In this document: piece by piece, positions 7,721 through 56,281 of the stretch | Layout: each line of letters opens with the position of its first letter | Position numbering within the stretch: position 1 is the first letter of the stretch | Assembly (NCBI GenBank): GCA_030018315.1 | Contig: JASEGA010000003.1 | Span: forward strand, 7,246-71,245 | Length of the DNA: 64,000 nucleotides | Reading direction: 5' to 3' | Source of the DNA: a bacterium | GTDB taxonomy: Bacteria; Hydrothermota; UBA3073; JACQXS01; JAGMCI01 | The notes under the pieces: model-generated | Databases searched by the model: none | Seen by the model: the letters and a program-made list of their open reading frames with translations, nothing else | What the model was told of the DNA's origin: nothing | Made by a program: the position numbers and the translations under genes

Positions 7721-8521
7721 TCATTTTAATTTGAGTGCAGGTGTGTTTAAAACAATTTCTTTTAGATTTTGTGCAAAGTTAGTCTTTGAAAGTTTACCTA
7801 CATTTCCTATTGAGGCTTCAAGTCCTTCATCAAAATCTATCTCACCAAGTAGAGGGATATTGAATTTTTTTATTTGTAGGGATAATTCATGAATTGTCCT
7901 TACAGGCTTCATGTTCTCAATAACCCCAATAATCTCGACCTGTCTTGCCTCTTTAAGCATTTTTATCACCTTTTTGACAGTCTCCATCGTCACTTTAGAC
8001 GGTGTAGCTATTATAATGAATTCAGCTCTTTTTATCAACCGAATTACATCTAATGTTGCATCCCCAATACCCGGTGGCATATCAATAATTAGAAAATCTA
8101 ATAAACCCCACCGTGTGATACTTAGCAATTCTATCATTGCATTTGAAATATCAATGCCTCTCAGTGGCGAAGGCTTATCAGCAGCATAATAAATGATAGA
8201 TATAAACTTAATGCCATAAATTTCAGGTGGTATAACTCCTTTATCTTCTTTTGGATAAATTCCTCTTATTCCTAATATTATATCAATAGATGGACTACAA
8301 AAATCCAAATCCAGTAGCCCAACTTTGTATCCTAATTCTGTCAAAGTCAATGCTAAAGTAGATGCAATTAAACTCTTACCAATACCACCTTTACCACCTG
8401 AGACAGCAATTAACCTCTTTATATTTCGTAATCTTTCATCAATTATATTTAAGCGCGGATCCATAATCATTATTGTATGGACACGGCACGCCGTGTCCAT
8501 ACAACTATTTTGTTCCTTCAA
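7721..8521 (-). CDS. Mrp/NBP35 (ApbC) family P-loop ATPase
   Basis: GKGGIGKS deviant Walker A. MinD/ParA-like fold. Confidence 0.8.
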   Translation of the reverse strand: MKEQNSCMDTACRVHTIMIMDPRLNIIDERLRNIKRLIAVSGGKGGIGKSLIASTLALTLTELGYKVGLLDLDFCSPSIDIILGIRGIYPKEDKGVIPPEIYGIKFISIIYYAADKPSPLRGIDISNAMIELLSITRWGLLDFLIIDMPPGIGDATLDVIRLIKRAEFIIIATPSKVTMETVKKVIKMLKEARQVEIIGVIENMKPVRTIHELSLQIKKFNIPLLGEIDFDEGLEASIGNVGKLSKTNFAQNLKEIVLNTPALKLK

Positions 8522-8930
8522 TAGACTCTATAAAGATACCTCGTCCTTTTATAAATTCAAAGTCAGGACTACCACATTTAGGGCACTTAATATAGGCATG
8601 TGCGACTTCGGGGACAAAATGTATTGATTCGGATTCTTCATCATTTAATTCCATATCACCAAAAGCCCAATTATGTTCACAGACTCTACATTTTAAAATA
8701 GCTTTTTCTGTTCCGATCTCTATTTTTGCTTTTCTAAGTGGAGTAGGAGTTTGATTAATCAAACCTCTACATTGGACAATTTCCTTTAGAGCAAATCTAA
8801 ATATCTCCGTATCTATTTGCTGTAATTCGCCCATCTTAATTTTAATCTTATCAATCCTTTTAAGTTTTTCTTTTTCTGCTACCCCAAGTGCAGTAGAAAC
8901 AACTGCCTCTGCTAATGCCCATTCATGCAT
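8505..8930 (-). CDS. hypA: Hydrogenase nickel-incorporation protein HypA carrying an in-frame palindromic-element insertion
   Basis: MHEWALAEAV... start and the CPKCGS zinc motif. Element A variant at 8743-8770 encodes CRGLINQTPTPL in a loop. Confidence 0.8.
   Translation of the reverse strand: MHEWALAEAVVSTALGVAEKEKLKRIDKIKIKMGELQQIDTEIFRFALKEIVQCRGLINQTPTPLRKAKIEIGTEKAILKCRVCEHNWAFGDMELNDEESESIHFVPEVAHAYIKCPKCGSPDFEFIKGRGIFIESIEGTK
8743..8770. repeat. Palindromic element A variant (GTAGGAGTTTGATTAATCAAACCTCTAC) inside hypA
   Basis: In-frame and encodes RGLINQTPT. Confidence 0.8.
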
Positions 8931-8941
8931 ATTGAGTCTTT

Positions 8942-8969
8942 GTAGGGGTTTGATTAATCAAACCCCTAC
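8942..8969. repeat. Palindromic element A, perfect 28-bp palindrome GTAGGGGTTTGATTAATCAAACCCCTAC, intergenic
   Basis: Perfect reverse-complement symmetry. Confidence 0.85.
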
Positions 8970-19621: not shown

Positions 19622-20520
19622 ATTTTATTGTGAATAGTTGTTTTTGTCAAATAAAAATGGTGGCAATAAATTGGGAAGCGATAGATCAAATGACTTTAGC
19701 CAGAACCTCTGATAAAATACCTGCCTGCCGTCGGGCATGGTTGGTAAAATGAGGGACTGGCGATGAACGAGAGCGATTTTATTTACCATATGAGAGTGAA
19801 AATATTTGAAGAAGCTGATAAACAGGAGACTTCTATAGTTTCTCTTTGTAGGAGGTATCATGTGAGTAGGAAATGGTTTTATCTGCAGAACTCGTGAGAA
19901 GAAATATCATTGTTGGGCATACTGGGATTTACAATGTTTTGCGAAGGAGGGGACTAAATACAGCAAAAAAGCGGTTGGAATGGGTAAGAAAATTAAATGG
20001 AGAAATTGTGACTCTTGATGAACTTGCCAGAGATAAAGAGAAATCTAAAACGAACCATATAGAAGCAACTTATCCGGGGCAGTTAGTGAGTGAGAATACT
20101 TTCTATATTGGTTGCTTGTGATTGTTTTTCTTCTTTTGGTGCTGCGAAGATTTATGCTAACAAGACCGCGGATACTTCCTGTGATTTTGTGGGAAACCAT
20201 CTTATCAAAAAATTCACAGGAGTGAGAATAGAAAGACTTCTTACAGACTGTGGGACAGAATATACAACTTGGCATGAGTCTGCAAAGCCAAACCATAAGT
20301 TTGAGAAAATGTGTCATAGGCTTGGGGTTCGGCATACTACTACCAAAGTGAGGCATCCATGGACCAACGGTTATGTTGAGAGGTTAAACAAAACTCTCTT
20401 AGATGAATTTATGGACGATTATAACTATAGAAGGACCCATCAGGGGTATAAGTTAAAGGAAAATGGCTACAATATACCAGCTGAGGCACATTTATCAAAA
20501 AACCTAAAAAAGACTTGACA
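19622..20520 (+). mobile_element. Decayed IS481-family insertion sequence (transposase split by frameshifts and stops)
   Basis: HTH fragment MNESDFIYHMRV..., then the rve integrase core LTDCGTEYTT...HPWTNGYVERLNKTL...YNYRRTHQG, spread across at least 3 frames. Confidence 0.55.
20090..20518 (+). pseudogene. IS481-like transposase, integrase-core fragment
   Basis: rve-domain DDE region without a cognate N-terminus in the same frame. Confidence 0.55.
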
Positions 20521-25306: not shown

Positions 25307-25738
25307 TTGAATCCTCTACCTGTCAAGAAAAAAATTGGGCTCTGTCCCATTGTCGTGTCCACAAATTTAAGGTGTGGAAATAAGAAAGTAGTAAAGTTTT
25401 ATAATAAATGGGGCACCTGTGAACAATGGATAAAAGAAGGCAAGTATGCGTTAAACTGGACGCAGTTATCATGCCAGAAGTTTGTGGAGAACGAGGGTAG
25501 GCTGAAGTTATTTATCCTGGCATATAATCTGGGTAATTTCTTAAGGACACTCGTGTTACCTGATGGGATAAAACATTGGTCGTTAAGAACAATTCAGTTA
25601 AAGCTGATAAAGCTCGGTGCGAGATTAATAAGGCATGCCCGATATTACTGTCTATTATTAGCTGAGTCTTGTATCAGTGAGAGGCTATTTTCTTGCTTGA
25701 TGCGTAATATCAAGCGACTTTGTCCTGCGACCGGGTGA
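25307..25738 (+). pseudogene. IS4/IS5-type DDE transposase C-terminal fragment
   Basis: ...WTQLSCQKFVENEGRLKLFILAYNLGNFLR... matches the conserved C-terminal region of DDE_Tnp_1 transposases. The N-terminus is missing. Confidence 0.5.
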
Positions 25739-26104: not shown

Positions 26105-27601
26105 TTAATAACGGATGTAAAAAGCTAATAAGCTAGCTAACCAGAAAAACAGAAGTGAAGTCACAAGTTTTATAGACACAGCATGCTTTCTCCAGAATAG
26201 GGTCAAATTTATAGATGTCGTCCCTCTATATGATGCAGTAAATACAATTGCTAATGGAAGGATAAATCCAAAGTTGTATAAAAATAAATAAGCTAATCCT
26301 TTTAGCTTGAGTGAAGACGACTTGACCACAAACAGGATAGTAGGTAGGTAAACTTGACCCGTACATACAAATTCACATATAGATATAAGAAAACCAATAA
26401 TTGCAGCTGATAGAATATAACTTCGCATCTCCATCTTTTGACGGATGATATCATCTATCCTTTTCTTAAAAAATTTAGGTAATTTCAGTTTGGCTTCTTC
26501 ATAGTTACCGGCTCTTAGTTTAAAGTAATCGTAGATACTTAACCCGCCAAATACTACAGCTAAAATTGCTGTTATAGAAAAAATTGCCTTCCGGAATATT
26601 GGGATAAACTCGCAATTTCTTATAAACTGAAATATTCCCATACCAATAAGAAAGTATGTAATAAACACAGAAGAAGTAAAAGTTATACCTGCTAATAGTA
26701 ACTCCTTGCCCTTTTTACCAATAAATGATAGAAATGATATGAATAGAACAACTGTAGCAATAGCACACGGATTTACTCCATCAATTAGACCTGCAAATAT
26801 AACAGTTAAAACACCCATCGTATTAAACCTGTCCCTGATATCTATTTCAGATTTATCTTTAACCTCTTTAGCTTCTTCCCAGGGTATTTTTGTCCCACTT
26901 ATTTTGTATTTTTCAATAAGGTCTATTATCTTTTTTCTGTTAATCTCTTTACCTATCAAAAATTCCTCTCCAATAAAAACTGCTGGAGTGACAAGTCTTC
27001 TCTTTTTTGGTACATTGTATAATTGGCACAAGGCTTCGTTTAGCTTTTTATTCTCTATGTCTCCAATATCAAACTTTTTAATTGTAAGATTGGTATACTT
27101 ACTCTCTAAGTATTTTAGTTCATAATTTATCCTATCGCATTCTCTACACATTTTTTTATAAAAGTAGGCTATATATATCATCTTTGCAGTTGTATCTTGA
27201 GTAGGAACAGCTCTTTTCATTTCTATCTCAGGGAACTCGCACCCCGTCTCTCTATACCGCTGAATTATCTTTTCTAAATTCTTCTTTATCTCCTTATCAC
27301 CACCAAGTATATATTCTCCAACAACTACAACAGGAATTTCATTATTTGTATCTTTGTACTTTTCTTCAAGTCTTACCAGCAGTTCATAGTTATTAGGTTC
27401 AGTGATTTCAAAAGATTTCATATTAAGATTATATTTTTGTTTAAGTGGTGTAATAATCTTTTTAATCACTTCTTGACAATACTTACAATCCTCTGAATAA
27501 AAGAAATAAAACTTTATCTCAGGGGACTGTCCCCGGATGGGGACTGTCCCCGTTGTAAAAATAAATGTAAATACTAAATACTTTCTCATCAGTATCTCCA
27601 T
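26105..27601 (-). CDS. Thioredoxin-like domains fused to a CcdA/DsbD-type membrane domain (thiol-disulfide transporter)
   Basis: CKYC and CRECDR motifs N-terminally. The NPCAIATVVLF... TM core is CcdA-like. Carries element D in-frame at 27522-27551. Confidence 0.6.
   Translation of the reverse strand: MEILMRKYLVFTFIFTTGTVPIRGQSPEIKFYFFYSEDCKYCQEVIKKIITPLKQKYNLNMKSFEITEPNNYELLVRLEEKYKDTNNEIPVVVVGEYILGGDKEIKKNLEKIIQRYRETGCEFPEIEMKRAVPTQDTTAKMIYIAYFYKKMCRECDRINYELKYLESKYTNLTIKKFDIGDIENKKLNEALCQLYNVPKKRRLVTPAVFIGEEFLIGKEINRKKIIDLIEKYKISGTKIPWEEAKEVKDKSEIDIRDRFNTMGVLTVIFAGLIDGVNPCAIATVVLFISFLSFIGKKGKELLLAGITFTSSVFITYFLIGMGIFQFIRNCEFIPIFRKAIFSITAILAVVFGGLSIYDYFKLRAGNYEEAKLKLPKFFKKRIDDIIRQKMEMRSYILSAAIIGFLISICEFVCTGQVYLPTILFVVKSSSLKLKGLAYLFLYNFGFILPLAIVFTASYRGTTSINLTLFWRKHAVSIKLVTSLLFFWLASLLAFYIRY
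27522..27551. repeat. Element D: tandem GGGGACTGTCCCC hairpins (GGGGACTGTCCCCGGATGGGGACTGTCCCC) inside a CDS
   Basis: Encodes TGTVPIRGQSP. A related triple copy at 37965-38006 encodes SGTVSIRGQSP. Confidence 0.7.
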
Positions 27602-28771: not shown

Positions 28772-29500
28772 TTACCTAATTACAATTATTTTCTTTGTTA
28801 TACTGTTATCACCAGCTATAAGCTTACAGAAATATACACCGGACTCAACCTCATTCCCGGCTAAATCTGTACCATCCCAGGAAACAGCAGTGATTAGTGA
28901 TAAGTGGTTATCCGAAGGATCCTGTGGAGTGATAAGTGAGAAAGACTTAACTAATCTGCCAGTTAGGTCATAAATTTGTAGTGTAGGGGTTTGATTAATC
29001 AAACCCCTACCTAATCCCTGAGCCCTAATAACAGTTTTCTTCCTGAATGGATTAGGATAGACTTCTAATACCTCGTCATCCGGTATTCGGATTTCGGATT
29101 TTATCGTCTCTTCTACTCCCTGAGCATCAACCTTTATTAGATAAACATCAAACCCTCCTGCACCATATGAATGAGTCGCTCCAGCTATAATGTAGCCACT
29201 ATCTTTCGTCTGTGCTACTGAGTTGCCATAGTCATCATCGGTTCCACTGTATGTCTTTGTCCAGATTGTGTCACCAGTTGAATTTACCTTTATTAGATAA
29301 ACATTACCAAATCCTGCACCGAATGAGTAAGTATATCCAGTTATAATATAGCCACCATCCAATGTTTGTGCTACTGAATAGCCACGGTCAGAATCAGGCC
29401 CACCATATGTCTTTTCCCAGCCCGCTACTGCTATCTTGGATAAAAGTGGCAACCAAATTATAGCCACCACTGTCATAGCCTTAGCCATTAGTTTATACAT
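28772..29500 (-). CDS. Secreted beta-propeller repeat protein with T9SS C-terminal domain, interrupted in-frame by palindrome A
   Basis: Signal peptide. GYIIAGATHSYGAG repeats. CTD ...SWDGTDLAGNEVESGVYFCKL. Element A at 28983-29010 encodes GRGLINQTPT. Confidence 0.7.
   Translation of the reverse strand: MYKLMAKAMTVVAIIWLPLLSKIAVAGWEKTYGGPDSDRGYSVAQTLDGGYIITGYTYSFGAGFGNVYLIKVNSTGDTIWTKTYSGTDDDYGNSVAQTKDSGYIIAGATHSYGAGGFDVYLIKVDAQGVEETIKSEIRIPDDEVLEVYPNPFRKKTVIRAQGLGRGLINQTPTLQIYDLTGRLVKSFSLITPQDPSDNHLSLITAVSWDGTDLAGNEVESGVYFCKLIAGDNSITKKIIVIR
28983..29010. repeat. Palindromic element A (perfect) inside a CDS
   Basis: GTAGGGGTTTGATTAATCAAACCCCTAC. Confidence 0.85.
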
Positions 29501-29643: not shown

Positions 29644-30102
29644 TTAGGATTTTTCATATACTTTCAAAATCTCTGTAATAACAGGTTTAAACTTTGTATT
29701 CTTAGCTATCTTGGTATTAAGTGGTTTCAAGCACAGTAAATAAGCTATTAAAAACACAAATCCACCTATTACACCAAAAGTTTCAGTCCCTATTATTCCC
29801 TTTACTACTCCAAACCCTATCCCAAAAGCAACTAATGGAAGGATAAAAAGTAAGAATGCAGAAAGCAAGGTGCTTTTAGGACTCGTCTCTATTCTCACTA
29901 ACTCATTAACCTTTATAAGTAGGGACACGCCATGGCGTGTCCCTACAACTGCCTCAACTACCATCTTATTTCCGTGAGGATTACAAAACATCCGCGCCGT
30001 ACACTTCTCACAAAAACCCTTAGGCTCAATCTCTACCTTAGCTAATTTTTCGCCAGAGGTGCAACCTCCTGATATCTCTATAACTCTACCTACTTCTTCC
30101 AT
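29644..30102 (-). CDS. RseC/MucC-family membrane protein with in-frame element C and element E
   Basis: N-terminal Cys-containing soluble domain and two TM helices. Element C at 29919-29946 encodes GTRHGVSL. Element E lies at 30055-30069. Confidence 0.45.
   Translation of the reverse strand: MEEVGRVIEISGGCTSGEKLAKVEIEPKGFCEKCTARMFCNPHGNKMVVEAVVGTRHGVSLLIKVNELVRIETSPKSTLLSAFLLFILPLVAFGIGFGVVKGIIGTETFGVIGGFVFLIAYLLCLKPLNTKIAKNTKFKPVITEILKVYEKS
29919..29946. repeat. Palindromic element C (perfect 28-bp palindrome GTAGGGACACGCCATGGCGTGTCCCTAC)
   Basis: Copies also at 37570-37595 and 54583-54610, all inside CDSs. Confidence 0.85.
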
Positions 30103-30162
30103 ATCGTTGAGTTATTATTTGCTAAATTCGCTATCATTAGGGTAATTTGTTCATATATAATC

Positions 30163-31374
30163 TTACTTTAGTGCAGTTCTAAGGTCATTTATTAAATCAT
30201 TTATATTTTCAATCCCTACCGATAGTCTCAACAGTGTATCTGTAATCCCCATTTGTATACGCTTTTCTACTGGTATTACTGCATGGCTCATTGTTGATGG
30301 ATGCTCAACAAGTGACTCAACTCCACCAAGACTCTCAGCAAGTGTGAAAACCTTAATCCTTTTAAGAAAACTCTTTACTTCATCAAGTCCGCCGCTAATT
30401 TCAAATGATACCATACCACTCATCCCCCTCATTTGCTTTTTAGCAAGCTTATATTGGGGATGTGAGGTTGCACCCTTCGCAGATTTAAGATACGGGAAAT
30501 AAACCTTTTTAACCTTTGGATGTGAGTTGAGAAACTCAGCTACCTTCATTGCATTGTTAAAATGAGCTTTCATCCTTACTGCAAGCGTTTTAAGTCCCCT
30601 CAAAACAAGCCATGAATCAAATGCTCCAGGCACTCCACCAACAGTACCTTGACAGAATTTCAATCTTTTGTAATGCTTTTCATTATTTGTTGTTATTGCA
30701 CCCCCTATTACATCACTGTGGCCACCAAGATATTTTGTTGTACTATGAACTACAATATCTATACCAAAATCAACAGGTGTCTGAAAGTATGGGGTTGCAA
30801 ATGTGTTATCAACTACAGTAATTAAGCCATATTTTTTACCTATCTTTGCTACAGCTTCGAGGTCAACAAGCCTCAGCAACGGATTTGTAGGTGTCTCAAC
30901 CCATATCAACTTGGTATTGGGTCTTATTTCTTTCACAACATTATCTAAATCAGTCGTATCAACAAAACTGAACTCAAGTCCATACTGTCTGAAAATATAT
31001 TCAAAAATTCTGTATGTGCCTCCATAGATATCCCAGGTTGAAATCACATGGTCACTAGCTTTTAAAAGATTCATCACAGTATTTATAGCCGCCATCCCAG
31101 ACGCAAATGCAAGCCCATATTTACAGTTCTCAAGACTTGCAATACACTCCTCAAGTGCCTTTCTTGTTGGATTTTGTATTCTACTATATTCATACCCTTT
31201 GTGTTTTCCTATACTCTCTGCCAGAGGTGCGACCTCTTGTGCATATGTAGAAGTCTGATAAATTGGGACCACAACAGAGCCTGTTGCCGGCTCTGGCTCC
31301 TGTCCTACATGAATAGCTCTTGTCTCAAACTCCATCATTGATGAGGTGCGACCTCGAGTAGACCGAGAATTCAT
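30163..31374 (-). CDS. PLP-dependent Cys/Met-metabolism enzyme (O-acetylhomoserine sulfhydrylase / cystathionine gamma-synthase family)
   Basis: STTKYLGGHSDVIGG lysine motif. Start set at the ATG preceded by GGAGGT (MNSRSTRG...). Confidence 0.85.
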   Translation of the reverse strand: MNSRSTRGRTSSMMEFETRAIHVGQEPEPATGSVVVPIYQTSTYAQEVAPLAESIGKHKGYEYSRIQNPTRKALEECIASLENCKYGLAFASGMAAINTVMNLLKASDHVISTWDIYGGTYRIFEYIFRQYGLEFSFVDTTDLDNVVKEIRPNTKLIWVETPTNPLLRLVDLEAVAKIGKKYGLITVVDNTFATPYFQTPVDFGIDIVVHSTTKYLGGHSDVIGGAITTNNEKHYKRLKFCQGTVGGVPGAFDSWLVLRGLKTLAVRMKAHFNNAMKVAEFLNSHPKVKKVYFPYLKSAKGATSHPQYKLAKKQMRGMSGMVSFEISGGLDEVKSFLKRIKVFTLAESLGGVESLVEHPSTMSHAVIPVEKRIQMGITDTLLRLSVGIENINDLINDLRTALK

Positions 31375-31382
31375 TTTACCTC

Positions 31383-32366
31383 CTACATAAATCCTTGTGC
31401 TTTCATCCAATCATCGTTAAAGATTTTACTCAAATACTTATGCCCGCTATCCGGTAAAATAGCAACTACAATTTGAGGTGATACCTCTTTTTCTTTTTCC
31501 AATTTTTTCGCCACTTCAATAGCTGCCCACACTGCTGCACCACTGGAGCCACCTGCAAAAATACCTTCCTCTTTTAAAAGTCGTCTTGTCATAATAAAAG
31601 AATCCTTATCCGATACCTGAATCATATCATCAATATACTCAAACTTCATAGTCTCACACAACATCTCCATACCTATGCCTTCAACAAGGTAAACTTTTGG
31701 CTCAATAAGTCTTTTATACTTAAAATAGTCACAATATACTGACCCGATAGGGTCTACACCAATTACTTTAATTTCCGGATTTTTCTCCTTTAGAAATTTG
31801 CCAACCCCTGAAATTGTACCACCTGTCCCAGCTCCTATAACTACATAATTAACTTTGCCATCAGTCTGTTCCCAAATTTCTGGTCCCGTAGTTTTATAGT
31901 GTGCTTCAACATTCTTCTCGTTGTGATATTGATTTATCAAGTAAGAATTGGGTGTTTTCTCAGCAATACGTTTAGCTACCTCATGATAAGACTCAGGTGA
32001 GTCAGGTGCAACATCAGTAGGGCAGACTATTACCTCTGCCCCAAATACTTTAAGTAAATCAATTTTCTCTTTACTCATCTTATCCGGGATAGTAAAAACT
32101 GCCTTGTACCCCTTAACAGCTGCATACATAGCTAAGCCAACACCTGTGTTGCCACTTGTATTCTCAACAATTGTGCCACCAGGCTTCAATAGGCCACACT
32201 TTTCAGCCTCCTCTACCATATAAATTGCCATCCTATCTTTCAGTGAACCACCGGGATTAAAGAACTCAAGTTTTGCTAAAACAGTCGCTTTTATACCACG
32301 AGTTACTCTATTCAATTTTATAAGCGGAGTATTACCTACAGTTTCTAAAATATTATTATACCACAT
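31383..32366 (-). CDS. Cysteine synthase / cystathionine beta-synthase-like PLP enzyme (paralog 1)
   Basis: Fold-type II PLP motifs (SVKDR, GNTG, GTGGT). Start taken at MWYNNILE, matching its paralog. Confidence 0.85.
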   Translation of the reverse strand: MWYNNILETVGNTPLIKLNRVTRGIKATVLAKLEFFNPGGSLKDRMAIYMVEEAEKCGLLKPGGTIVENTSGNTGVGLAMYAAVKGYKAVFTIPDKMSKEKIDLLKVFGAEVIVCPTDVAPDSPESYHEVAKRIAEKTPNSYLINQYHNEKNVEAHYKTTGPEIWEQTDGKVNYVVIGAGTGGTISGVGKFLKEKNPEIKVIGVDPIGSVYCDYFKYKRLIEPKVYLVEGIGMEMLCETMKFEYIDDMIQVSDKDSFIMTRRLLKEEGIFAGGSSGAAVWAAIEVAKKLEKEKEVSPQIVVAILPDSGHKYLSKIFNDDWMKAQGFM

Positions 32367-33331
32367 TAAATGAATCCTTTCTCTCTCATCCACTCATCAT
32401 TGAAAATCTTACTGAGATATCTGCTTCCACTATCCGTAAAAATAGTGATAACGACCTTATCACGAGGCAACCCCTTCGCTACTTTAAGTGTAGCACATGC
32501 CGCTGCTCCTGAAGCGCCTCCGACAAAGATTCCTTCCTCTCGTAATAACCTTCTTGCCATAAGAAATGCATCCTTATCAGAAACTTGAATTACATCGTCA
32601 ATTAGCTCAAATTTTAAAGTCCCAGGTAGTAGATGTTCACCAATCCCTTCCATCAGATAAACTTTAGGTTCTATAAATTTTCTATGCTTAGCCCAGTCAT
32701 AATATATTGAGCCTACCGGGTCTACACCTATCACTTTAATCTTTGGGTTCTTCTCTTTTAAAAATTTACTTACTCCCGAAATTGTGCCACCAGAGCCCAT
32801 ACCAATAACTACATAGTCGACTTTCCCTTCAGTCTGTTCCCAAATCTCTGGCCCTGTGGTTCTGTAGTGGGATTCAATATTTTTCTGGTTGTAGAACTCA
32901 TCTACTAAAAAAGCATTCCTCTCCTTAGCAATCCGCTTAGCAACTTCAAAATATGAATTAGGTGAATCCGGAGGAGTATCGAGTGGGCAAGCTATTACCT
33001 CTGCTCCAAGTGCTTTAAGTAAACCAATTTTTTCCTTACGTGTTTCATCAGGTATTGTAAAGATTGTCTTGTATCCTTTAACAGCTGCATATATGCCTAT
33101 ACTAATTCCTGCATTACCTGATGTGCTCTCAACAATAGTATCCCCTTGCTTCAAAAAAACCAACTTCTCAGCATCTTTAAGTATATAAAATGCCATCCTA
33201 TCTTTTACTGAGCCACCAGGGTTGAAGAATTCAAGCTTCGCTAAGATAGTAGCTTCTATACCACGAGTCACTCGATTCAATTTTACAAGTGGAGTATTAC
33301 CTACAGTCTCTAAAATATTATCATACCACAT
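32367..33331 (-). CDS. Cysteine synthase / CBS-like PLP enzyme (paralog 2, tandem duplicate)
   Basis: Roughly 60% identical to the downstream paralog by eye. Same motif set. Confidence 0.85.
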
Positions 33332-33383
33332 TACTCCTCCAGCTTCTTTATCTGTTCCTCTAACTCATAAATAAGTTCATTTC

Positions 33384-33662
33384 TTAGAGTAATCTAAAAT
33401 ACAACTGGCAAGCCCAAATCTTGCATCCTGAAAGCGTGCATTCACTATTTACTACCACTGACGCAGTATAATCTGGTATATCTGTTAATGCGGACCAGCC
33501 AAACACATTATTCCTACTCAGCGTACTTGTTGTAATAACCCCTTTCCCTGGAACATCAATCTGGACTGCTAATTCTCCCTCAATACAAATAAAGAACTCA
33601 CCACAAGAGCTACCTTCATCAACAATCTTGGTGCCCGCCTTGCAGCTCCTTTCAATTGCCAA
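33384..33662 (-). CDS. Cyclic-nucleotide-binding domain protein (short, stand-alone)
   Basis: GEFFICIEGELAV... is the cNMP-binding beta-roll signature. Only ~92 aa. Confidence 0.45.
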   Translation of the reverse strand: MAIERSCKAGTKIVDEGSSCGEFFICIEGELAVQIDVPGKGVITTSTLSRNNVFGWSALTDIPDYTASVVVNSECTLSGCKIWACQLYFRLL

Positions 33663-33741
33663 CTTTTCTACAGAATTTATCTCCTCAATAGATAGTTTTC
33701 AAATACTCTTGTCTTTTTAAGTAAGTCTGCTTATTTCATAT

Positions 33742-34776
33742 TTACCCTCCTTGCCATAGCTCCTCTTTTATTCTCAAAATATCATCTTTTTCAGGTTTGA
33801 ATGGAAAGTTTCTAATCTCATCCCCCGGTATTTCATTTGCATACGGTCTGTTGCAAGCAACCTGACCATCATTACCAGGGCAGCCAGCTGTCATAAATGG
33901 AATACCTGAATCAATAATCCTTGACAACTTATCCACAGGAAGTCCAAAATCTCTAACCCTTTCATCTTCATCAAACCCCATTTTCCAAAATGAAGAAATG
34001 CCCTCATCTATCAAATACCTTGCAATCTGTACTCGTCTGTATTGTCCAATTGGTGGTTGTGGAAAATTTGATAGCATAGAGTCTTTTTCTGGAAAGAATG
34101 AGAACAAGTGAGTCAGACCACCAATGTCATATACCTTTTGAATAGTAGCTACCATTTCTTTTTCAGTTTCACCTAATCCAACAATTAAATGCGACCCAAC
34201 CATGCGTTCCCCAAAGATTTCTACTGCCATATCAAAGCATTCCCAGTATCTATCCCACCTATGCGGTCCTTTGACATATTTACCTCTCAATCTTTCAAAT
34301 AGCATAGGTGTAGCCGCATCTATAGATATTCCAATACGGTCTGCACCACTATCTTTAAACGCTTTAAGGTCATCTTTGTTTAGTATAGTAGGTGCAATAA
34401 GTAAAGATATTGGAATATCCACTCTATTCTTGATAATTCCTGTAATCTTTACAATATCATTCTTTGCTCTTATATTTGTGACCATTGAGATACATATCCT
34501 CTTAACCCTTTCCTTTTTTTCTAATATACGCTCTATTATCTCATCTACTTTATAAGTAGGCCATTCTACTCTTATAAAACTTTTATTTTCATATTTGCCG
34601 TATCTACCCATAGAAAGGCCACAATAAGCACAGTTCCCTATGCAGCCTTCTTTATAGGTTAATAACAAGTTGATACAGTATAACTTTGCAGCCCGATAAA
34701 ACAGACCCGGCTTTAAATCTAAAGTTATCGCCGCCGCTGAACTCATCCTCAAGTATTCGGGACTCTCATTAATCAT
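33742..34776 (-). CDS. Radical SAM protein, biotin-synthase-related (LipS-type lipoyl synthase candidate)
   Basis: CIGNCAYC CxxxCxxC motif. BioB-like TIM-barrel length. Confidence 0.6.
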   Translation of the reverse strand: MINESPEYLRMSSAAAITLDLKPGLFYRAAKLYCINLLLTYKEGCIGNCAYCGLSMGRYGKYENKSFIRVEWPTYKVDEIIERILEKKERVKRICISMVTNIRAKNDIVKITGIIKNRVDIPISLLIAPTILNKDDLKAFKDSGADRIGISIDAATPMLFERLRGKYVKGPHRWDRYWECFDMAVEIFGERMVGSHLIVGLGETEKEMVATIQKVYDIGGLTHLFSFFPEKDSMLSNFPQPPIGQYRRVQIARYLIDEGISSFWKMGFDEDERVRDFGLPVDKLSRIIDSGIPFMTAGCPGNDGQVACNRPYANEIPGDEIRNFPFKPEKDDILRIKEELWQGG

Positions 34777-34780
34777 TGAT

Positions 34781-35773
34781 TTAGACTAATGTAGGGGTTT
34801 GATTAATCAAACCCACAATGAATGGGACTGAGCAACAAGTCTTTTGATATTGTATTTCTAATTCATACTCCTTTGCTTTTCTTATTGCTGCTTCTGACAC
34901 TAATGCGATTCTATTAAATCCATGCTCCACAGCTAATACATCAATCTTAGGGTTATTCCTTGGACGCGCACAGCCCAAAGCTATAGGAGTATTGGGCATT
35001 TTTATTCTAAGCGTTGCCATAATTTTAGCTATAGAGTTAAGGCTTGGTAACGCTATATTTTCCATAGGAGTTCCTAAAAGTGGCATCAACACAACTACAA
35101 CTACACAGGCTACCTTATATTTACTAACTATATTAATAGCTCTGTATTCACCTTTAATTTTGCCATAATGTAAACCAATTATGATATGAGGCACAATAGG
35201 AAGCCCAGCATTTTGTAATGCATCCAATGACTCTATTATCTTGTTTATGCCAAAATCCACATGATAGACCTTTTGCAATGTCTCATCGTCCCCTATTACA
35301 TCAATAAGGGCTTGGTCTACACCTGCATCTTTTAGTTGCACTGCTATCCCAGTGTCTATTATTCCACTATGTATTGAGATAAGTAGACTCGTTTTTTCTT
35401 TTATTTCTTTTATAGCAGGGATAAAATTAGCCCAAGGTAAACTGCCATCTTTTTGGCTTCCACCAGTAATCAGACACCCTATGTTACCATTTCTTTCTAA
35501 CTCTATGCATTTTCTTATTAGTTCAGCTGGTGTAGTCGCAAATATCATTGACTTAAGCATCTTTGAATTACAGTGGTCACAGGTAAGCTCACATTTATCA
35601 CCAGTTATTGATATAGCAGGATATTTACCCCATTCACTATCACATCTGAACATACCAGGGTGATAGAAAGTTATATTCTTGCCAAAGTTATGCCAAGATA
35701 GTTCTCTTGCTTTATTAAGCAAATCCGTTATTTCTACCTCGCCGTCGGGTAGGCGGATTTCGTCATTCGTCAT
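34781..35773 (-). CDS. Radical SAM protein, biotin-synthase-related (second LipS-type candidate) with C-terminal element A fusion
   Basis: CELTCDHC motif. Start taken at MTNDEIRL. The C-terminus ...FIVGLINQTPTLV* is supplied by element A at 34791-34815. Confidence 0.6.
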   Translation of the reverse strand: MTNDEIRLPDGEVEITDLLNKARELSWHNFGKNITFYHPGMFRCDSEWGKYPAISITGDKCELTCDHCNSKMLKSMIFATTPAELIRKCIELERNGNIGCLITGGSQKDGSLPWANFIPAIKEIKEKTSLLISIHSGIIDTGIAVQLKDAGVDQALIDVIGDDETLQKVYHVDFGINKIIESLDALQNAGLPIVPHIIIGLHYGKIKGEYRAINIVSKYKVACVVVVVLMPLLGTPMENIALPSLNSIAKIMATLRIKMPNTPIALGCARPRNNPKIDVLAVEHGFNRIALVSEAAIRKAKEYELEIQYQKTCCSVPFIVGLINQTPTLV

Positions 35774-36977
35774 TATAATACTCTTTAAATGCAACCCAGC
35801 ATTTCCTGACCACACTCCAAAAGTCATTGCGAGTCCCGACAAAGGGTGGGACGAAGCAATCTTCCATAAACTTCCTTTTTACACATGCACGTGTAAGTTC
35901 AGCACCGAATATTTTACGCCATTCGTGTTCATATTCTGATAGTATATCAAGATTACCTTCTCTTATTGACTTGGCAGCTACTCGACCTGCAATTTTGCCA
36001 CATATAACAGCTTGAGGTATTCCACCACCAGTTATAGGATGAGTCTGACCTGCAGCATCACCTACTAAAATTGTATTCTCCTTATATGTCCTCTTCAAAG
36101 GACCACCTACTGGAATTAATCCACCTGTAACTGAAAGTTGGCTACCCTTAAGTTTACCACCGCTCTTTAACTTATCAACAAAATATTCCAATAACTCACT
36201 CAATCTCTCTTGATTGCTAAGTTCAAGGCTAAAACCTTGAGTTACATCTTTTAAATTTGGAATTTGGAATTTGTAATTTGTATTTTGTTTTATTCCTATT
36301 CCTACATTTGCAATCTTACCTTTTGGAAACAGCCATCCATAACCACCAACAAATTTATGGTCAAAGTAGACTTCAGTCCAATCCATCACAGTTGTGAGTG
36401 GCATTTCATATTGCAAAGCAGTAACAAAAGTTGTATTAGTTTCACCTACCCAACTCCCAACTGTAGATTGTGGCCCATCAGCTCCAATTATCACTTTTGC
36501 ATAGAGTTCTAAGTTTTTACCGTTTTTCTTACCTGTCGGCAGACAAGTATTTACAATTATTCCATTCTTTGTTTTAGAAATACACAATGTATTAAGTAAT
36601 ACATCTACTCCAATATTTTGTGCCCTTTGTACTAATTCTTTATCAAAAATAGCTCTATTTAATATATACCCGGGGGATTGTGTCTCAAAACATTTTCCCA
36701 AAATGTCATTGCGAGTCACGACCTTTGTCGGGACGAAGCAATCGCCATCCACTATGTAAGTTTTCATTGAATTTATTTCCTGTGCAATACTATCAGCTGT
36801 AAATTTTACCTCTTGTGATAGTAATTTAGGTACAAACTCAGCACACTGGACAGGCTCACCTACAACCTTCCTCTTTTCAAGCAATAATACTTTTGTACCT
36901 AATTTAGATGCTTCATACGCAGCAGATGCTCCTGCAGGACCAGCACCTACAACCACTATATCATATCGTTTCGTCAT
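35763..36977 (-). CDS. FAD-dependent oxidoreductase, geranylgeranyl reductase family, with three in-frame repeat insertions
   Basis: VVVGAGPAGASAA Rossmann motif. V-family elements at 36705-36743 (GDCFVPTKVVTRND) and 35823-35861 (EDCFVPPFVGTRND). A hexamer repeat at 36256-36290. Confidence 0.8.
   Translation of the reverse strand: MTKRYDIVVVGAGPAGASAAYEASKLGTKVLLLEKRKVVGEPVQCAEFVPKLLSQEVKFTADSIAQEINSMKTYIVDGDCFVPTKVVTRNDILGKCFETQSPGYILNRAIFDKELVQRAQNIGVDVLLNTLCISKTKNGIIVNTCLPTGKKNGKNLELYAKVIIGADGPQSTVGSWVGETNTTFVTALQYEMPLTTVMDWTEVYFDHKFVGGYGWLFPKGKIANVGIGIKQNTNYKFQIPNLKDVTQGFSLELSNQERLSELLEYFVDKLKSGGKLKGSQLSVTGGLIPVGGPLKRTYKENTILVGDAAGQTHPITGGGIPQAVICGKIAGRVAAKSIREGNLDILSEYEHEWRKIFGAELTRACVKRKFMEDCFVPPFVGTRNDFWSVVRKCWVAFKEYYNDE
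35823..35861. repeat. V-family element GTCATTGCGAG-[hairpin]-CGAAGCAATC
   Basis: Copies at 35823-35861, 36705-36743, 38615-38656, 56234-56269 (reverse) and 61483-61508 (reverse). Confidence 0.75.
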
Positions 36978-36994
36978 TCGGCATTTGGATTTCG

Positions 36995-38605
36995 TTATTG
37001 AATTGCATCCATAACCTCTTTTAACAACCCAATGTTTAGCTCAGTTTGACTCTCAAACCTGCCTTTATATGCTTCTTCAACCTTACCTAATTCGTAACAA
37101 GTAGTGTTATCTATATCAATCAATATTCCACCTAACCCTATATCCTCAAGTTCTTCTCTATGCTTTGCATAAAATGGCTCACAACAGCACCCAATATAAG
37201 AGGTGATACCGTCTCTTTTATACCTTTTAAGGGTTGACATTAGATGCTCAAAACTTACTATTGTTGTGACCATCATAGACCGCTCTCTCCCAATCCTATA
37301 TGCCTCACCAACACTACATTTGCCACACTCAGTGCAGAAATCTTTATATCTAAACTTGCAAACTTTCAGTTTTGCACAATATGGAAGAAGTAGGGGCAAT
37401 TCATGAATTGCCCCTACATGCTGAAGAATAATTTTAGAGAATGTCCCATTAACAGTGAATACTCTATTCCCCAATGGAAGCGGGATACCAAATTTTACGA
37501 GTTCAATTTTTTCCAATGCCTCATTAATTGCGGAGATAAAATCAGACGGCTTGATTCCAGGTATCTTGGGTAGGGACACGCCATGGCGTGTCCCTTTGAA
37601 AAATTGATTGATTTTATTTTGGACAGTTATTTTATCTGCCCTTATATCTTTGAGAATAGCTTCCAAGTCAAATATTGCCCTCTTTGGATACGCAAAGAAA
37701 TCGCCTGTTATGAGTGCACTCTCTATCTGATTACGCTTCGTATTAACTACAAGTGAAGTCCTAATCAATCCACCTTCTGCTTTATAAACTGAATGTGCAA
37801 CTTGGCGAGTATACGCTGGCTCTTTAACTTTATTAATCCATTTATTTGACTTAAATTTATTTAGTTTTTGGTAAAACAGCAACTCTTCATCTTTTGTCAA
37901 CCCACCCTTAATCAATTCAATCCCAAATTCTTTTTCAAACCCCTGTTTTAGTATTTGTTTTATAGGGGACTGTCCCCGAATGGAGACTGTCCCCGAATGG
38001 GGACACCCAAGTTCCCATTTTAGACAAGTAACTCGTTCTTTAACAGAGTCAATCTCTTTATCTTTGAGCTTTTCTATAGGAATACGAAGTGCTCTAAGCA
38101 TTGTATTAACATCAAAGTCTACAAGGAGCGTACCTTGAAATAAAAATGCCTCTCCTTCTTCTGTGCCACCTGTGCCAGAAATCTTTCTACCATTGACTTC
38201 AATATCATTTCTAGGCCGAAATTTTGCATTTATCCCTAATCTCTTGAGCGCATAAATAACAGGTTGACATAAATCCTTAAAGAAAGATTCGTTTACAATA
38301 CTGGTTTTAAAAAATGACTTCTCACAGATAATCTCCCAGCCAAGCTGTGACTCATCAAAATAAATTGCACCACCACCTGTAATTCTTCTGTTCACATCTA
38401 TACCATTTTTATTGCAGAAGTCAAGTCTAACCTCTTGTTCTACGGTCTGATGATAACCAACTAATACTGCAGGTGGATAAAATTGTAAGAACCTAACAGT
38501 ATTTGGAGAAAGCTTTTTACTTTTAGTCTCAAGCAATGTCTCATCCATTGCCATATTTTCAGCCGCTGTCCTCACCCCTGTATCAAGTAACCGCCACTTA
38601 CTCAT
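36995..38605 (-). CDS. Lipoate-protein ligase A-like protein with Cys-rich C-terminal extension, carrying elements C and D in-frame
   Basis: The N-terminus matches LplA (RRITGGGAIYFDESQLGWEII...). Extra C-terminal CxxC pairs. Element C at 37570-37595 (KGTRHGVSL). Element D triple copy at 37965-38006. Confidence 0.7.
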   Translation of the reverse strand: MSKWRLLDTGVRTAAENMAMDETLLETKSKKLSPNTVRFLQFYPPAVLVGYHQTVEQEVRLDFCNKNGIDVNRRITGGGAIYFDESQLGWEIICEKSFFKTSIVNESFFKDLCQPVIYALKRLGINAKFRPRNDIEVNGRKISGTGGTEEGEAFLFQGTLLVDFDVNTMLRALRIPIEKLKDKEIDSVKERVTCLKWELGCPHSGTVSIRGQSPIKQILKQGFEKEFGIELIKGGLTKDEELLFYQKLNKFKSNKWINKVKEPAYTRQVAHSVYKAEGGLIRTSLVVNTKRNQIESALITGDFFAYPKRAIFDLEAILKDIRADKITVQNKINQFFKGTRHGVSLPKIPGIKPSDFISAINEALEKIELVKFGIPLPLGNRVFTVNGTFSKIILQHVGAIHELPLLLPYCAKLKVCKFRYKDFCTECGKCSVGEAYRIGRERSMMVTTIVSFEHLMSTLKRYKRDGITSYIGCCCEPFYAKHREELEDIGLGGILIDIDNTTCYELGKVEEAYKGRFESQTELNIGLLKEVMDAIQ

Positions 38606-38663
38606 TTCTAAAATGTCATTGCGAGCGACCCTGAACTTGTTTCAGGGGAAGCAATCTCATTTT

Positions 38664-39584
38664 TTATTGAAAAAGCCCAGTTGATAAATACCGCTCTCCA
38701 GTATCAGGTAAAATCACTACTATTAGCTTACCTTTGTTTGCATCTCTTTTTGCAACTTGTAGTGCTCCCCAAACTGCAGTACCTGATGAGATTCCTACGA
38801 GCAAGCCTTCATCCTTTGCTAACTTTCGTGTCATATTCATTGCCTCTTCATTTGTTACTTGTATTATCTCGTCAATGATATCAGTGTTTAAAACAGCTGG
38901 CACAAACCCTGCCCTTATTCCCTGGATTTTATGAGGACAGAGCTGTCCACCAGATAGGACAGGAGAGTCCTTTGGCTCAACAGCTATTGCTTTAAATTCA
39001 GGTTTTCTATTTTTAATCACTTCAGCAACCCCGGTAATAGTGCCACCAGTCCCTACACCAGCAACCAAAATATCTACTTTACCATCTGTATCTCTCAAAA
39101 TCTCCTCTGCAGTCGTCTTTCTGTGTATTTCTGGGTTAGCTGGATTCTTAAACTGTTGTGGGATGAAGTATTTTGGGTCAGAGAAAGCAAGTTCATCTGC
39201 CTTCTCAACTGCACCTTTCATTCCTCTCTCTCCTGGTGTTAAAATAAGGTCTGCCCCAAATGCCTTGAGTAAAGCCCTTCATTCAACACTCATTGTATCA
39301 GGCATTGTAAGACATAACTTATAGCCTTTAACAGCGCACACAAATGCTAATGCTATACCTGTATTACCACTTGTAGGCTCAAGAATAACAGTATCTTCTT
39401 TTATAAGGCCAGCTTTTTCGGCTGCCTCAATCATTGCTACACCTATTCTATCCTTTACTGATGACAACGGATTAAAAGACTCTAACTTTGCTACCGCTTT
39501 CGCTTTTACCCCTTTAGTTATTTTATTCAACATCACCAAAGGAGTATTGCCAACTAACTCAGTCACATCCTTAGCAATCTTCAT
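38664..39584 (-). pseudogene. Cysteine synthase (cysK-like) interrupted by an in-frame TGA at 39280-39282
   Basis: The two ORFs (39279-39584 and 38664-39221) are collinear in one frame. They read ...[23 protein letters not shown], and Arg is expected at the stop position. Confidence 0.7.
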
Positions 39585-48899: not shown

Positions 48900-49371
48900 C
48901 CTTCCCCCTCTGTTTGTATTCGTCCAAAATATCTTGCAAGCTCATATCATTAAGAATCTTGCTAAATTCCTTACTTAACCTATTCCATACAACTCTTGCT
49001 ACACAGTTATTTATTCTATCACACTCTCCGGTTGAGGTTTCACCTCTTGGCACACAGTTTGAAAGCTTAATAGGACCCTCAAGTGCATATAAAATATCGC
49101 CTACCTTTATTTTCTTAAGTGGCTTTTTAAGTTTATACCCACCACCAGGTCCTCGCACAGATTCAACCAATCCCGCTATATTAAGGTCGTGAAAAATTCT
49201 CTCCAAGTAAGCCATAGGAATACACTGTTTTTCAGATACACTCTTAACCGAAGTAGGGGCTTGATTAATCAAACCCCTACCTTGCCCATTTTTAGCTTGC
49301 CTCGCCAAGTCAAGGCGGGCAAGCTCAATCATTGCCCGTAGCCCATATCTACCTTTACTTGAAATCCTCAT
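48892..49371 (-). CDS. Rrf2-family regulator (IscR-like) with in-frame palindrome A insertion
   Basis: MRISSKGRYGLRAM... Rrf2 N-terminus and CVPRGETSTGECDRINNC ligand cysteines. Element A at 49253-49280 encodes GRGLINQAPTS just upstream of the HTH. Confidence 0.8.
   Translation of the reverse strand: MRISSKGRYGLRAMIELARLDLARQAKNGQGRGLINQAPTSVKSVSEKQCIPMAYLERIFHDLNIAGLVESVRGPGGGYKLKKPLKKIKVGDILYALEGPIKLSNCVPRGETSTGECDRINNCVARVVWNRLSKEFSKILNDMSLQDILDEYKQRGKDG
49253..49280. repeat. Palindromic element A variant (GTAGGGGCTTGATTAATCAAACCCCTAC) inside the iscR-like gene
   Basis: In-frame insertion. Confidence 0.8.
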
Positions 49372-56148: not shown

Positions 56149-56281
56149 CCACTCACATTATACTCTGCTATATTTTAGCTTGTCAAATAAAAACCTTGAT
56201 TTTTATAGTAAACTATGATAAATTTTTACTAAGATTGCTTCGTCCCGATAAATCAGGACTCGCAATGACGGTAAAAAAGAT

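Follow-up and report, generated by a model that had tools for sequence, protein, structure and literature searches.

The 64-kb window analysed here (64,000 nucleotides of contig JASEGA010000003.1, assembly GCA_030018315.1, from a bacterium of the Hydrothermota; all coordinates are those of this whole stretch) contains, between positions 33742 and 38605, a tightly packed set of four genes that run in the same direction on the minus strand and encode, in this order, a lipoate ligase, a GGR-family flavoprotein and the radical SAM proteins LipS1 and LipS2. The analysis centered on this cassette and on a Cys-rich, DUF116-type tail carried by its ligase. A first-pass annotation of the same DNA, produced by a model, had pointed to the cluster, and all of the elements that it listed were recovered on the minus strand at the positions given.

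The four genes of the cassette

The first gene, lpl(AB)-DUF116 (36995-38605, minus strand, stop included), encodes a ligase of 536 aa recognized through Pfam and NCBIfam matches. It is followed after 17 nt by lipT (35763-36977, minus strand), whose 404-aa product is a FAD oxidoreductase of the GGR family matching TIGR02032. The radical SAM genes lipS1 (34781-35773, minus strand, 330 aa) and lipS2 (33742-34776, minus strand, 344 aa) come next and are separated by 4 nt. A longer open reading frame (ORF) for lipS1 spans 34781-35842; the probable start is ATG 35773, where the alignment with homologues begins and where the gene overlaps the lipT stop codon (TGA) by 11 nt. This arrangement, taken from the ORF list of the window, looks like an operon. 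A pattern scan for sigma-70 promoters and terminators gave counts not above those in shuffled sequences and was uninformative either way. The start codons of lipT and lipS1 each fall inside a copy of a ATGACGAA-type motif (CGAATGACGAAA), at 36970-36984 and 35759-35773, respectively; both proteins start with MT, and NDE is encoded twice where the two genes overlap. In four of five homologous loci the ligase and lipT genes overlap, instead of being separated by a spacer as in the window.

The ligase begins with an LplA/B catalytic domain (aa 14-202; 38000-38566, minus strand) matched by PF21948 (173 bits, E 8e-51), in which the lysine of the GRKISGTGG motif, K141, is invariant in 55 aligned sequences. 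A probable LplB-type accessory domain (aa 274-364; 37514-37786, minus strand) was indicated by a sub-threshold match to the NCBIfam LplB model (49.8 bits, E 2.9e-13, cut-off 65), a weak match to Pfam Lip_prot_lig_C and a match of this region to LplA subunit 2 (PDB 3r07_C, E 3.8e-6). LplA chains in the PDB match the ligase at E values down to 1e-29. As seen at the first pass, a Cys-rich extension of about 150 aa follows that has no counterpart in canonical LplA: the PDB LplA chains align with aa 12-360 only, and the PDB sequence search returned no match to the ligase beyond aa 360. The full-length AlphaFold2 (AF2) model reached a pLDDT of 85.9 and a pTM of 0.77. The 120 top homologues of the ligase are all 510-574 aa long, with PF21948 and PF01976 precomputed on most of them, and come from Thermoplasmatota, Actinomycetota, Desulfobacterota, WOR-3 and others; the nearest one other than the protein itself is 63% identical. 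In the NCBI record (MDI6839671.1) the ligase is named "DUF116 domain-containing protein".

Against the NCBIfam model for LipS1 (NF053742, cut-off 230 bits), the lipS1 product scored 236.9 bits as the long ORF and 237.2 bits from ATG 35773, over model positions 5-268 of 268, and the lipS2 product matched the model for LipS2 (NF053743). These were the only strong NCBIfam matches of the radical SAM pair, which bears out the LplA plus LipS1/LipS2 arrangement that the first-pass annotation had recognized. Additionally, LipS1 showed a weak Pfam match to the BATS domain, and the PDB sequence search gave no match for LipS2. Related radical SAM families scored poorly in the same hidden Markov model (HMM) comparison. 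Of those raised as alternatives at the first pass, BioB (cut-off 225 bits) reached 49 and 29 bits and PylB (cut-off 348 bits) 30 and 25 bits, and no HydE model appeared at E 0.01 in the NCBIfam scan; HmdB likewise scored far below its NCBIfam cut-off.

The radical SAM motif of LipS1 is C61x3C65x2C68 (CELTCDHC), and its LGCAR, KTCCS and PHI motifs are invariant in six aligned sequences; the conserved residues outside the radical SAM motif are the Cys of GCAR, the two adjacent Cys of KTCCS and one His. LipS2 carries C45x3C49x2C52 and the further invariant residues C95, C299 and C308. In Thermococcus kodakarensis, mutagenesis identified C230, C276, C277 and H159 as ligands of the auxiliary cluster of LipS1, and those of LipS2 are C85, C276 and C279 (Neti et al. 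2022, PMC9585515). The window proteins share with these enzymes the CX3CX2C motif, and their conserved non-motif Cys (with the His in LipS1) are equal in number to the T. kodakarensis ligands, the LipS1 equivalence being drawn from motif order and not from a direct alignment with the T. kodakarensis protein. They differ in the last Cys pair of LipS2, which is Cx2C in T. kodakarensis (C276, C279) and Cx8C here. The genes are also dispersed in T. kodakarensis (PMC9585515), whereas lipS1 and lipS2 are adjacent and clustered with the ligase in the window and in most of 85 related loci.

LipT scored 215 bits against TIGR02032 (cut-off 158.8), which places it in the GGR superfamily, and it carries the FAD motifs GAGPAG and GDAAG. 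The ligase and radical SAM genes of such clusters were described by Cao et al. 2018 (PMC6067878), and Tanabe et al. 2023 (PMC10332631) reported lipS1-lpl(AB)-lipT-lipS2 clusters, in which the FAD oxidoreductase was named LipT and was put forward, as a proposal only, as the electron supplier for sulfur insertion. According to the latter work, 91% of bacterial lipT genes come from genomes that also carry lipS1/S2, and LipT is found in about 53% of the bacteria that have LipS1/S2 (PMC10332631). The GGR gene of the window corresponds to this known LipT, an assignment made with models other than the authors' own LipT HMM. The first-pass annotation was thus right about the presence of a GGR flavoprotein in the cluster; it is no longer the unexplained extra as which it had been described.

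Compared with the published sLpl(AB)-LipS1/LipS2-LipT clusters (PMC6067878, PMC10332631), the same four functions are clustered in the window, in genes that abut or overlap; the differences are the third, DUF116-like domain of the ligase and the lack of sHdr or LbpA genes near the operon. With canonical LplA and the LipB/LipA pathway of E. coli the cassette shares the LplA/B fold, the catalytic lysine and, probably, the LplB-type accessory domain, and with E. coli LipA it would share radical SAM sulfur insertion with sacrificial clusters. Unlike LipA, it has two synthase subunits, in which the Cx4Cx5C and RSSY motifs are not expected.

The DUF116-type tail of the ligase

The tail (aa 385-536; 36998-37453, minus strand) matched PF01976 over aa 401-505 with 34.9 bits (E 1.3e-8, gathering threshold 25 bits, model positions 39-143 of 155). 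Eight Cys residues are invariant in an alignment of 55 sequences, namely C410, C416, C424, C427, C430, C474, C475 and C503; amongst these, C424-x2-C427-x2-C430 form a CxxCxxC motif and C474/C475 a CC pair. AF2 modelled the tail (pLDDT 88.2, pTM 0.85) as a four-stranded parallel alpha/beta domain of flavodoxin-like type, with the first five of the Cys in an irregular loop. A Foldseek search of the tail against the PDB returned nothing below E 0.026, and its weak matches were flavodoxin-like folds (B12-binding, type II dehydroquinase and receiver domains). No resemblance to Nfu, IscU, SufA or other known carriers was found with Pfam or with Foldseek against the PDB.

Two other possibilities for the extension had been raised at the first pass, a missed stop and a zinc ribbon. 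An artefact of a missed stop or frameshift is ruled out by the continuous ORF, by the same architecture in about 100 clusters at 50% identity and by the confident AF2 model. The structure prediction that had been suggested for a zinc ribbon returned a DUF116-type alpha/beta domain instead, with a Cys-rich loop that lacks zinc-ribbon-like hairpins.

An exhaustive HMMER search with the tail through 1.84 billion representatives gave 184 relatives at E ≤0.001, nearly all of them either located at about residues 380-520 of proteins of about 500-570 aa or fragments. In a word-indexed homologue search with the tail alone, all of the returned sequences were pieces of fused ligases, and stand-alone DUF116 proteins were absent. 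Judged by these relatives, the tail is a separate DUF116 subfamily that is found almost only on ligases.

The DUF116 family (arCOG02078, COG1852) was predicted by Makarova et al. 2015 (PMC5898192) to be a flavodoxin-fold CxxCxxC metal protein in electron transfer, and the AF2 fold and CxxCxxC motif of the tail agree with this prediction. The likeness also includes the PF01976 score above threshold and the further conserved Cys, and a role in electron transfer would be drawn from context here as it was there. Stand-alone arCOG02078 members have two N-terminal transmembrane helices, and in some bacteria DUF116 is fused to a polyprenyl synthetase (PMC5898192). The window tail, unlike the stand-alone members, is soluble and fused to the ligase; it directly follows the probable LplB-type domain and has no N-terminal transmembrane helices. 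A link between DUF116 and lipoate was absent from the main texts of PMC6067878 and PMC10332631, from the supplement text of PMC10332631 and from PMC5898192. A literature search that paired lipoate with DUF116, PF01976 or COG1852 returned just Makarova et al. 2015 and an unrelated preprint, neither of which makes the link. The lipoate pathway itself is known, but the ligase domain variant is widespread and undescribed.

The gene neighborhood was examined in GTDB representative genomes scanned with a LipS2 profile, which gave 503 relatives; the best 80 loci were scored with HMMs from our own alignments. Co-occurrence was counted over the 50 loci with enough flanking sequence, in a sample that is skewed to near relatives (LipS2 identity 55-65%) and whose members are not independent phylogenetically. 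The fused ligase was present in 45 of these 50 loci and LipT, whose co-occurrence with the cluster the first-pass annotation had suggested checking, in 47. Both were present in 45 loci, LipT occurred without a nearby fused ligase in two, neither was found in three, and the fusion occurred without LipT in none (0/50). A GcvH-like gene lay within 8 kb in 26 of the 50.

The commonest order was ligase-LipT-LipS1-LipS2 (36 loci), with LipT directly after the ligase; the fusion was kept in all of the other orders (ligase-LipS2-LipT-LipS1, ligase-LipT-LipS2-LipS1 and LipS2-LipT-LipS1-ligase). Five loci reached through ligase homologues, from a probable archaeon, WOR-3, a Desulfobacterium, Actinomycetota and Thermoplasmatales, were all ordered [Lpl(AB)-DUF116]-LipT-LipS1-LipS2. 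The nearest cassette homologues are 63-65% identical and include Thermoplasmata metagenome-assembled genomes (MAGs), which fits the frequent inter-domain transfer reported for the ligase family; this family is described as having an archaeal-type origin and frequent horizontal transfer (PMC10332631).

Further fusions were identified in individual loci. In one of them (protein P0203, locus L210), an 825-aa product combines the ligase, DUF116 and LipT, and its gene precedes those for a radical SAM protein, TusA and DsrE. In three representatives (P0266, P0276 and P0264; L208/L209) the tail is fused to a CdhB-like domain (PF02552); two of these include the full ligase, the third being a fragment that starts within the tail, and at one ligase-DUF116-CdhB-like locus lipS and lipT genes are missing from the neighborhood. 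CdhB-like domains have a fold of the dinucleotide-binding-like kind.

Genes for a GcvH-like lipoyl protein, a GlcD-like FAD oxidase and an HdrD/GlcF-like Fer4/CCG protein precede the cassette in the Desulfobacterota (L004) and Actinomycetota (L005) loci. This trio was found in 18-28 of about 85 related loci, and at L004 Fer4 and CCG genes lie between lipS1 and lipS2. This set may constitute an uncharacterized lipoate-dependent redox module; GcvH-like, GlcD-like and CCG genes were not found in the window.

In-frame palindromic repeats and flanking genes

Palindromic or hairpin elements are embedded in the cluster, as the first-pass annotation had noted, although more than the four that it counted were found. 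Altogether the proteins carry at least nine insertions, three in the ligase (7, 5 and 5 aa), four in LipT and two in LipS1; LipS2 has none. The length of each insertion is divisible by three, none of the four frames is interrupted, and of 274 columns with at least 97% conservation among 58-84 homologues the window proteins keep 270.

The three ligase insertions coincide exactly with palindromes. The first is a doubled GGGGACAGTC hairpin at 37964-38005 (-26.8 kcal/mol, z -4.1) that encodes CPHSGTVSIRGQSP (aa 201-214), adds a net 7 aa and is unique to the window in the ligase alignment; the GGGGACTGTCCCC doublet has two window loci, this one and 27522-27551. The second is the 24-nt perfect palindrome AGGGACACGCCATGGCGTGTCCCT at 37572-37595 (-19.3 kcal/mol, z -5.9), which encodes GTRHGVSL (aa 338-345), adds a net 5 aa and recurs in its full 28-mer form at 29919 and 54583. 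The third is the 28-nt perfect palindrome GTAGGGGCAATTCATGAATTGCCCCTAC at 37390-37417 (-19.7 kcal/mol, z -4.7), which encodes VGAIHELPL (aa 397-405) and adds a net 5 aa at the start of the DUF116 domain. In the AF2 model of the ligase the first two insertions fall in loops (residues 203-207 with pLDDT below 50; block 341-350 at 67) and the third in a more confident linker (pLDDT blocks of 73 and 88).

In LipT, an element composed of a hairpin between GATTGCTTC and CTCGCAATGAC (36693-36743) gives a 16-aa insertion, CFVPTKVVTRNDILGK, in the DCFV...ILGK stretch (aa 79-95), which is missing from five homologues. A second GATTGCTTC...CGCAATGAC element (35820-35861) encodes DCFVPPFVGTRNDF (aa 373-386) in the C-terminal region, an insertion of about 7 aa, and a third copy (38615-38656) is intergenic, between cysK and the ligase and just upstream of the latter. 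The other two LipT insertions are CLPTGKK (7 aa; 36525-36545), which is missing from four of five homologues and has no repeat family assigned, and an AT-rich direct repeat (ACAAATTACAAATTCCAAATTCCAAAT) at 36231-36287, which encodes QNTNYKFQIPNLKDVTQGF, an insertion of about 18 aa missing from homologues; this repeat is not a hairpin (minimum free energy 0 kcal/mol). At the 3' end of lipS1 a GTGGGTTTGATTAATCAAACCCCTAC palindrome (34790-34817) provides the C-terminal extension PFIVGLINQTPTLV, a tail translated from the GGGTTTGATTAATCAAACCCCTAC palindrome with its perfect 20-nt core at 34795-34814. Perfect copies of this palindrome lie at 8942 and 28983 and a near-perfect one at 49253. LipS1 also has a 10-aa N-terminal addition relative to homologues. 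The insertions in LipT and LipS1 fall where homologues have gaps or at gene ends.

Such elements are found throughout the window. Perfect stems of at least 10 bp occur at 23 positions, compared with 0-1 in five mononucleotide shuffles. Folding energies were -10.9 to -26.8 kcal/mol (z -2.8 to -5.9) for the perfect palindromes and the doubled hairpin. At least 12 palindromes of GTAGGG...CCCTAC type with differing cores are present in the 64 kb, those outside the cluster at 1931, 7876, 8473, 8942, 11271, 28983, 29919, 49253 and 54583, with several falling within ORFs (PlsY, Mrp/NUBPL ATPase, RseC, an Rrf2 regulator and a type IX secretion system (T9SS) protein). HypA (8505-8930) is about 27 aa longer than its Pfam model. 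A GATTGC family has five window copies (35820-35861, 36693-36743, 38615-38656, 56233-56269 and 61482-61508), with conserved outer arms (GATTGC...GCAATGAC), a variable self-complementary inner hairpin and an in-frame reading of DCFV...RND; its copies fold more weakly (z -1.0 to -1.9). By pattern matches alone, counted post hoc, the cluster holds about 6 of about 20 repeat copies in 7.6% of the window.

The exact 28-mer GTAGGGACACGCCATGGCGTGTCCCTAC, the full form of the 24-nt palindrome in the ligase gene, was found in over 120 contigs from metagenomes. Those retrieved, 80 in number (L087-L166), span 32-66% GC, sister variants such as GTAGGGTCATGCCATGGCATGACCCTAC share contigs with it, and the element seems to cross taxa. 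The metagenome copies are mostly intergenic, and long open frames run across only 15 of 89 occurrences. In contig L133, three copies are spaced by exactly 489 nt. A separately assembled Logan contig (SRR23186779, L207), which quite possibly derives from the same reads, matches 29918-37418 at 100% identity, indicating that the insertions are not an artefact of one assembler; it ends one base past a 28-nt palindrome at both ends, which indicates that the repeats break short-read assemblies. Close relatives lacking the insertions were not found in the collections searched, where the nearest ligase other than the protein itself is the one at 63% identity.

Repetitive extragenic palindromic (REP) sequences begin with GTAG, are extragenic and have a cognate transposase, RAYT, while Rickettsia palindromic elements (RPE) are in-frame insertions tolerated in protein genes. 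The window elements resemble REPs in being short, GC-rich palindromes with 5' GTAG and many copies per genome, and differ from them in that several copies lie inside ORFs and that no RAYT-type/Y1 transposase was present among the 30 neighboring window ORFs scanned. As in RPEs, some copies are in frame in protein genes and tolerated; unlike RPEs, they are far shorter (20-50 nt) and comprise several families sharing GTAGGG...CCCTAC ends. The palindromes are REP-like repeats inserted in frame, at surface loops and gene ends, in three of the four genes without disabling them, and they are a genome-wide repeat phenomenon and not a feature of the pathway. They show how deeply a REP-like repeat can invade genes for an essential cofactor without destroying them.

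Directly upstream of the ligase lies cysK (38664-39584, minus strand), which has a single in-frame TGA (39279-39281), presumably where a conserved Arg is expected, and is otherwise intact over model positions 2-298; it could be a pseudogene, a sequencing error or a case of read-through. A remnant of a cNMP-binding domain (33384-33740, minus strand), with stops and frameshifts N-terminally and a 92-aa fragment left open, directly follows lipS2. Further downstream (30163-33331, minus strand) are two tandem CBS/CysK-like pyridoxal phosphate (PLP) paralogues and a Cys/Met PLP enzyme of the cystathionine gamma-lyase/synthase type. Together with cysK, this transsulfuration-type block places four sulfur amino-acid genes around a sulfur-inserting pathway. 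Other neighbors include RseC, a thioredoxin-like protein, MnmA, NadA, NifU and a T9SS cargo protein, with a T9SS sorting domain at 28772-29500 that points to a bacterium of the FCB group. An ORF of 1140 aa, on the sole plus-strand island in mid-window, is flanked by fragments of an rve-type integrase (20090-20518, plus strand) and a DDE_Tnp_1_4 transposase (25307-25738, plus strand).

Possible roles of the tail and of LipT

In the family to which these proteins belong, Lpl(AB) transfers octanoyl or lipoyl groups to the lysine of a lipoyl domain in an ATP-dependent reaction. LipS2 inserts sulfur at C8, followed by LipS1 at C6, and each of them uses SAM, a CX3CX2C-bound [4Fe-4S] cluster and an auxiliary [4Fe-4S] cluster that is consumed as the sulfur source and needs regeneration for multiple turnovers (PMC9585515). 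Dithionite was the reductant in the in vitro work with T. kodakarensis (PMC9585515).

Altogether, the gene content and conserved residues suggest that the region is probably a functional operon that builds protein-bound lipoate de novo through the Lpl(AB)-LipS1/LipS2-LipT route, with the tail as a putative relay. The ligase would activate free octanoate (or lipoate) and load it onto the lysine of a lipoyl domain; LipS2 and then LipS1 would insert sulfur at C8 and C6 of the octanoyl-lysyl substrate; and LipT would supply reducing equivalents derived from NAD(P)H, the role proposed for it in PMC10332631. The DUF116 tail, in turn, would hold one or more Fe-S clusters and pass electrons from the FAD of LipT to the radical SAM clusters. 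LipT and DUF116 would then be a dedicated analogue of the flavodoxin reductase and flavodoxin that serve LipA and BioB in E. coli, the flavoprotein and the Cys-rich domain taking the place of that pair. That the tail binds Fe-S and relays electrons in this way is a tentative proposal, based on its motif, predicted fold and gene context, with Rosetta-stone hints from the fusions to LipT and to the CdhB-like domain. With the same caution, the tail may be regarded as a fifth component of the LipS1/LipS2 route, a ligase-tethered Fe-S module carrying electrons (or sulfur) from LipT.

Several observations weigh against this interpretation. The LipS2 score of 232.4 bits (positions 2-292 of 292 of NF053743) is below the cut-off of 270 bits; since five relatives from the same cassette type also score 225-250 bits with LipS2 (and 231-249 bits with LipS1), this looks like a property of the cassette type, which differs in this respect from the sLpl(AB) clusters, and not of the window copy. 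The ligase likewise remains under the equivalog cut-off of TIGR00545 (173.5 bits against 280). The window lacks a gene for a lipoyl acceptor (GcvH, E2 or LbpA), and pseudogenes lie on both flanks of the operon. The co-occurrence of DUF116 and LipT may mirror the shared ancestry of related cassettes and not functional coupling, and the sole fusion of LipT to the tail, at L210, is on a low-coverage contig with a probable 5' frameshift. Sequence alone does not distinguish Fe-S from Zn in the tail. LipT keeps the GGR Cys (VQCAEF) and GGYGWLFPK, both invariant in six aligned sequences; we take this Cys and the YxWxFP motif to be GGR active-site marks, and they could mean substrate reduction and not mere passing of electrons. 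Additionally, the LipT of sulfur oxidizers accompanies short ligases without a DUF116 tail (PMC6067878, PMC10332631), so the tail is not a general requirement for LipT function.

The alternative that fares best, although unlikely, is that the tail is an Fe-S or sulfur supply module and not a relay, rebuilding or feeding the auxiliary clusters in LipS1 and LipS2 much as NfuA and IscU serve LipA. Tethering to the ligase would, on this account, put such a module where the octanoylated substrate forms. The sacrifice of the auxiliary [4Fe-4S] clusters and the need to regenerate them (PMC9585515) argue for it, as do the eight invariant Cys including the CC pair, which exceed the need of a single relay cluster, and the sulfur-transfer genes TusA and DsrE directly downstream of the fusion at L210. 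However, the tail is dissimilar to Nfu, IscU, SufA and other known carriers, its tight link is to the flavoprotein LipT and to another putative dinucleotide-binding domain, and its DUF116 relatives were earlier tied to redox enzymes (PMC5898192).

A more doubtful alternative is that the tail binds metal (Zn or a sensing Fe-S cluster) in a structural or regulatory capacity, docking the ligase to LipS1/LipS2 or to the acceptor protein, or gating its activity by redox or iron status, without a catalytic part. The ligase-DUF116-CdhB fusion away from lipS and lipT suggests that the tail follows the ligase and not the synthases, and the pTM of the full-length model is suggestive of a fixed arrangement with the ligase body. 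These points have to be set against the lack of zinc-ribbon-like hairpins in the Cys-rich loop, against a CxxCxxC motif with five more invariant Cys on a flavodoxin-like fold, which is typical of cofactor sites, and against the fact that none of the 50 loci has the fusion without LipT.

The conserved residues of LipT bear on a further alternative, which we consider improbable, namely that LipT is a GGR-type reductase of a substrate (an unsaturated C8 chain or the dithiolane) fed by the DUF116 Fe-S domain, and not a donor to the radical SAM enzymes. This would mirror an archaeal GGR fed by a dedicated ferredoxin; the GGR of Methanosarcina has a ferredoxin partner. The retained VQCAEF Cys, GGYGWLFPK and FAD motifs are consistent with it, as are the match of LipT to a GGR structure (PDB 3oz2, E 2.9e-37) and the DUF116-polyprenyl synthetase fusions of some bacteria (PMC5898192). 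On the other side, the known chemistry from octanoate to lipoate needs no such reduction, and the published proposal for LipT is electron supply (PMC10332631). Finally, it is very improbable that the two radical SAM proteins are true BioB, HydE or PylB enzymes, or that the cluster is a decaying, repeat-invaded relic: the weak BATS match of LipS1, the sub-threshold LipS2 score, the insertions and the flanking pseudogenes could be read this way, but the BioB, PylB and HydE results, the intact frames, the conserved columns and the confinement of the insertions to multiples of three in loops, linkers, alignment gaps of homologues and gene ends all argue against it.

The preferred interpretation, an Lpl(AB)-LipS1/LipS2-LipT operon with the tail as a candidate relay, has consequences beyond this locus. 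The cassette subtype is common in anaerobes, including Desulfobacterota, Thermoplasmatota, WOR-3, Caldisericia and Actinomycetota MAGs, in which lipoate metabolism is poorly studied. At NCBI its products are named only "DUF116 domain-containing protein", "radical SAM protein" and "NAD(P)/FAD-dependent oxidoreductase", so that the lipoate pathway is currently invisible in such genomes. The tail, which is found almost only on ligases and always with LipT in the sampled loci, is a testable candidate for the missing reductant or cluster-servicing link of the route. If this is true, it would be the first functional assignment for the DUF116 family, and the cassette would be a self-contained machine that leads from NAD(P)H and octanoate to lipoyl-protein.

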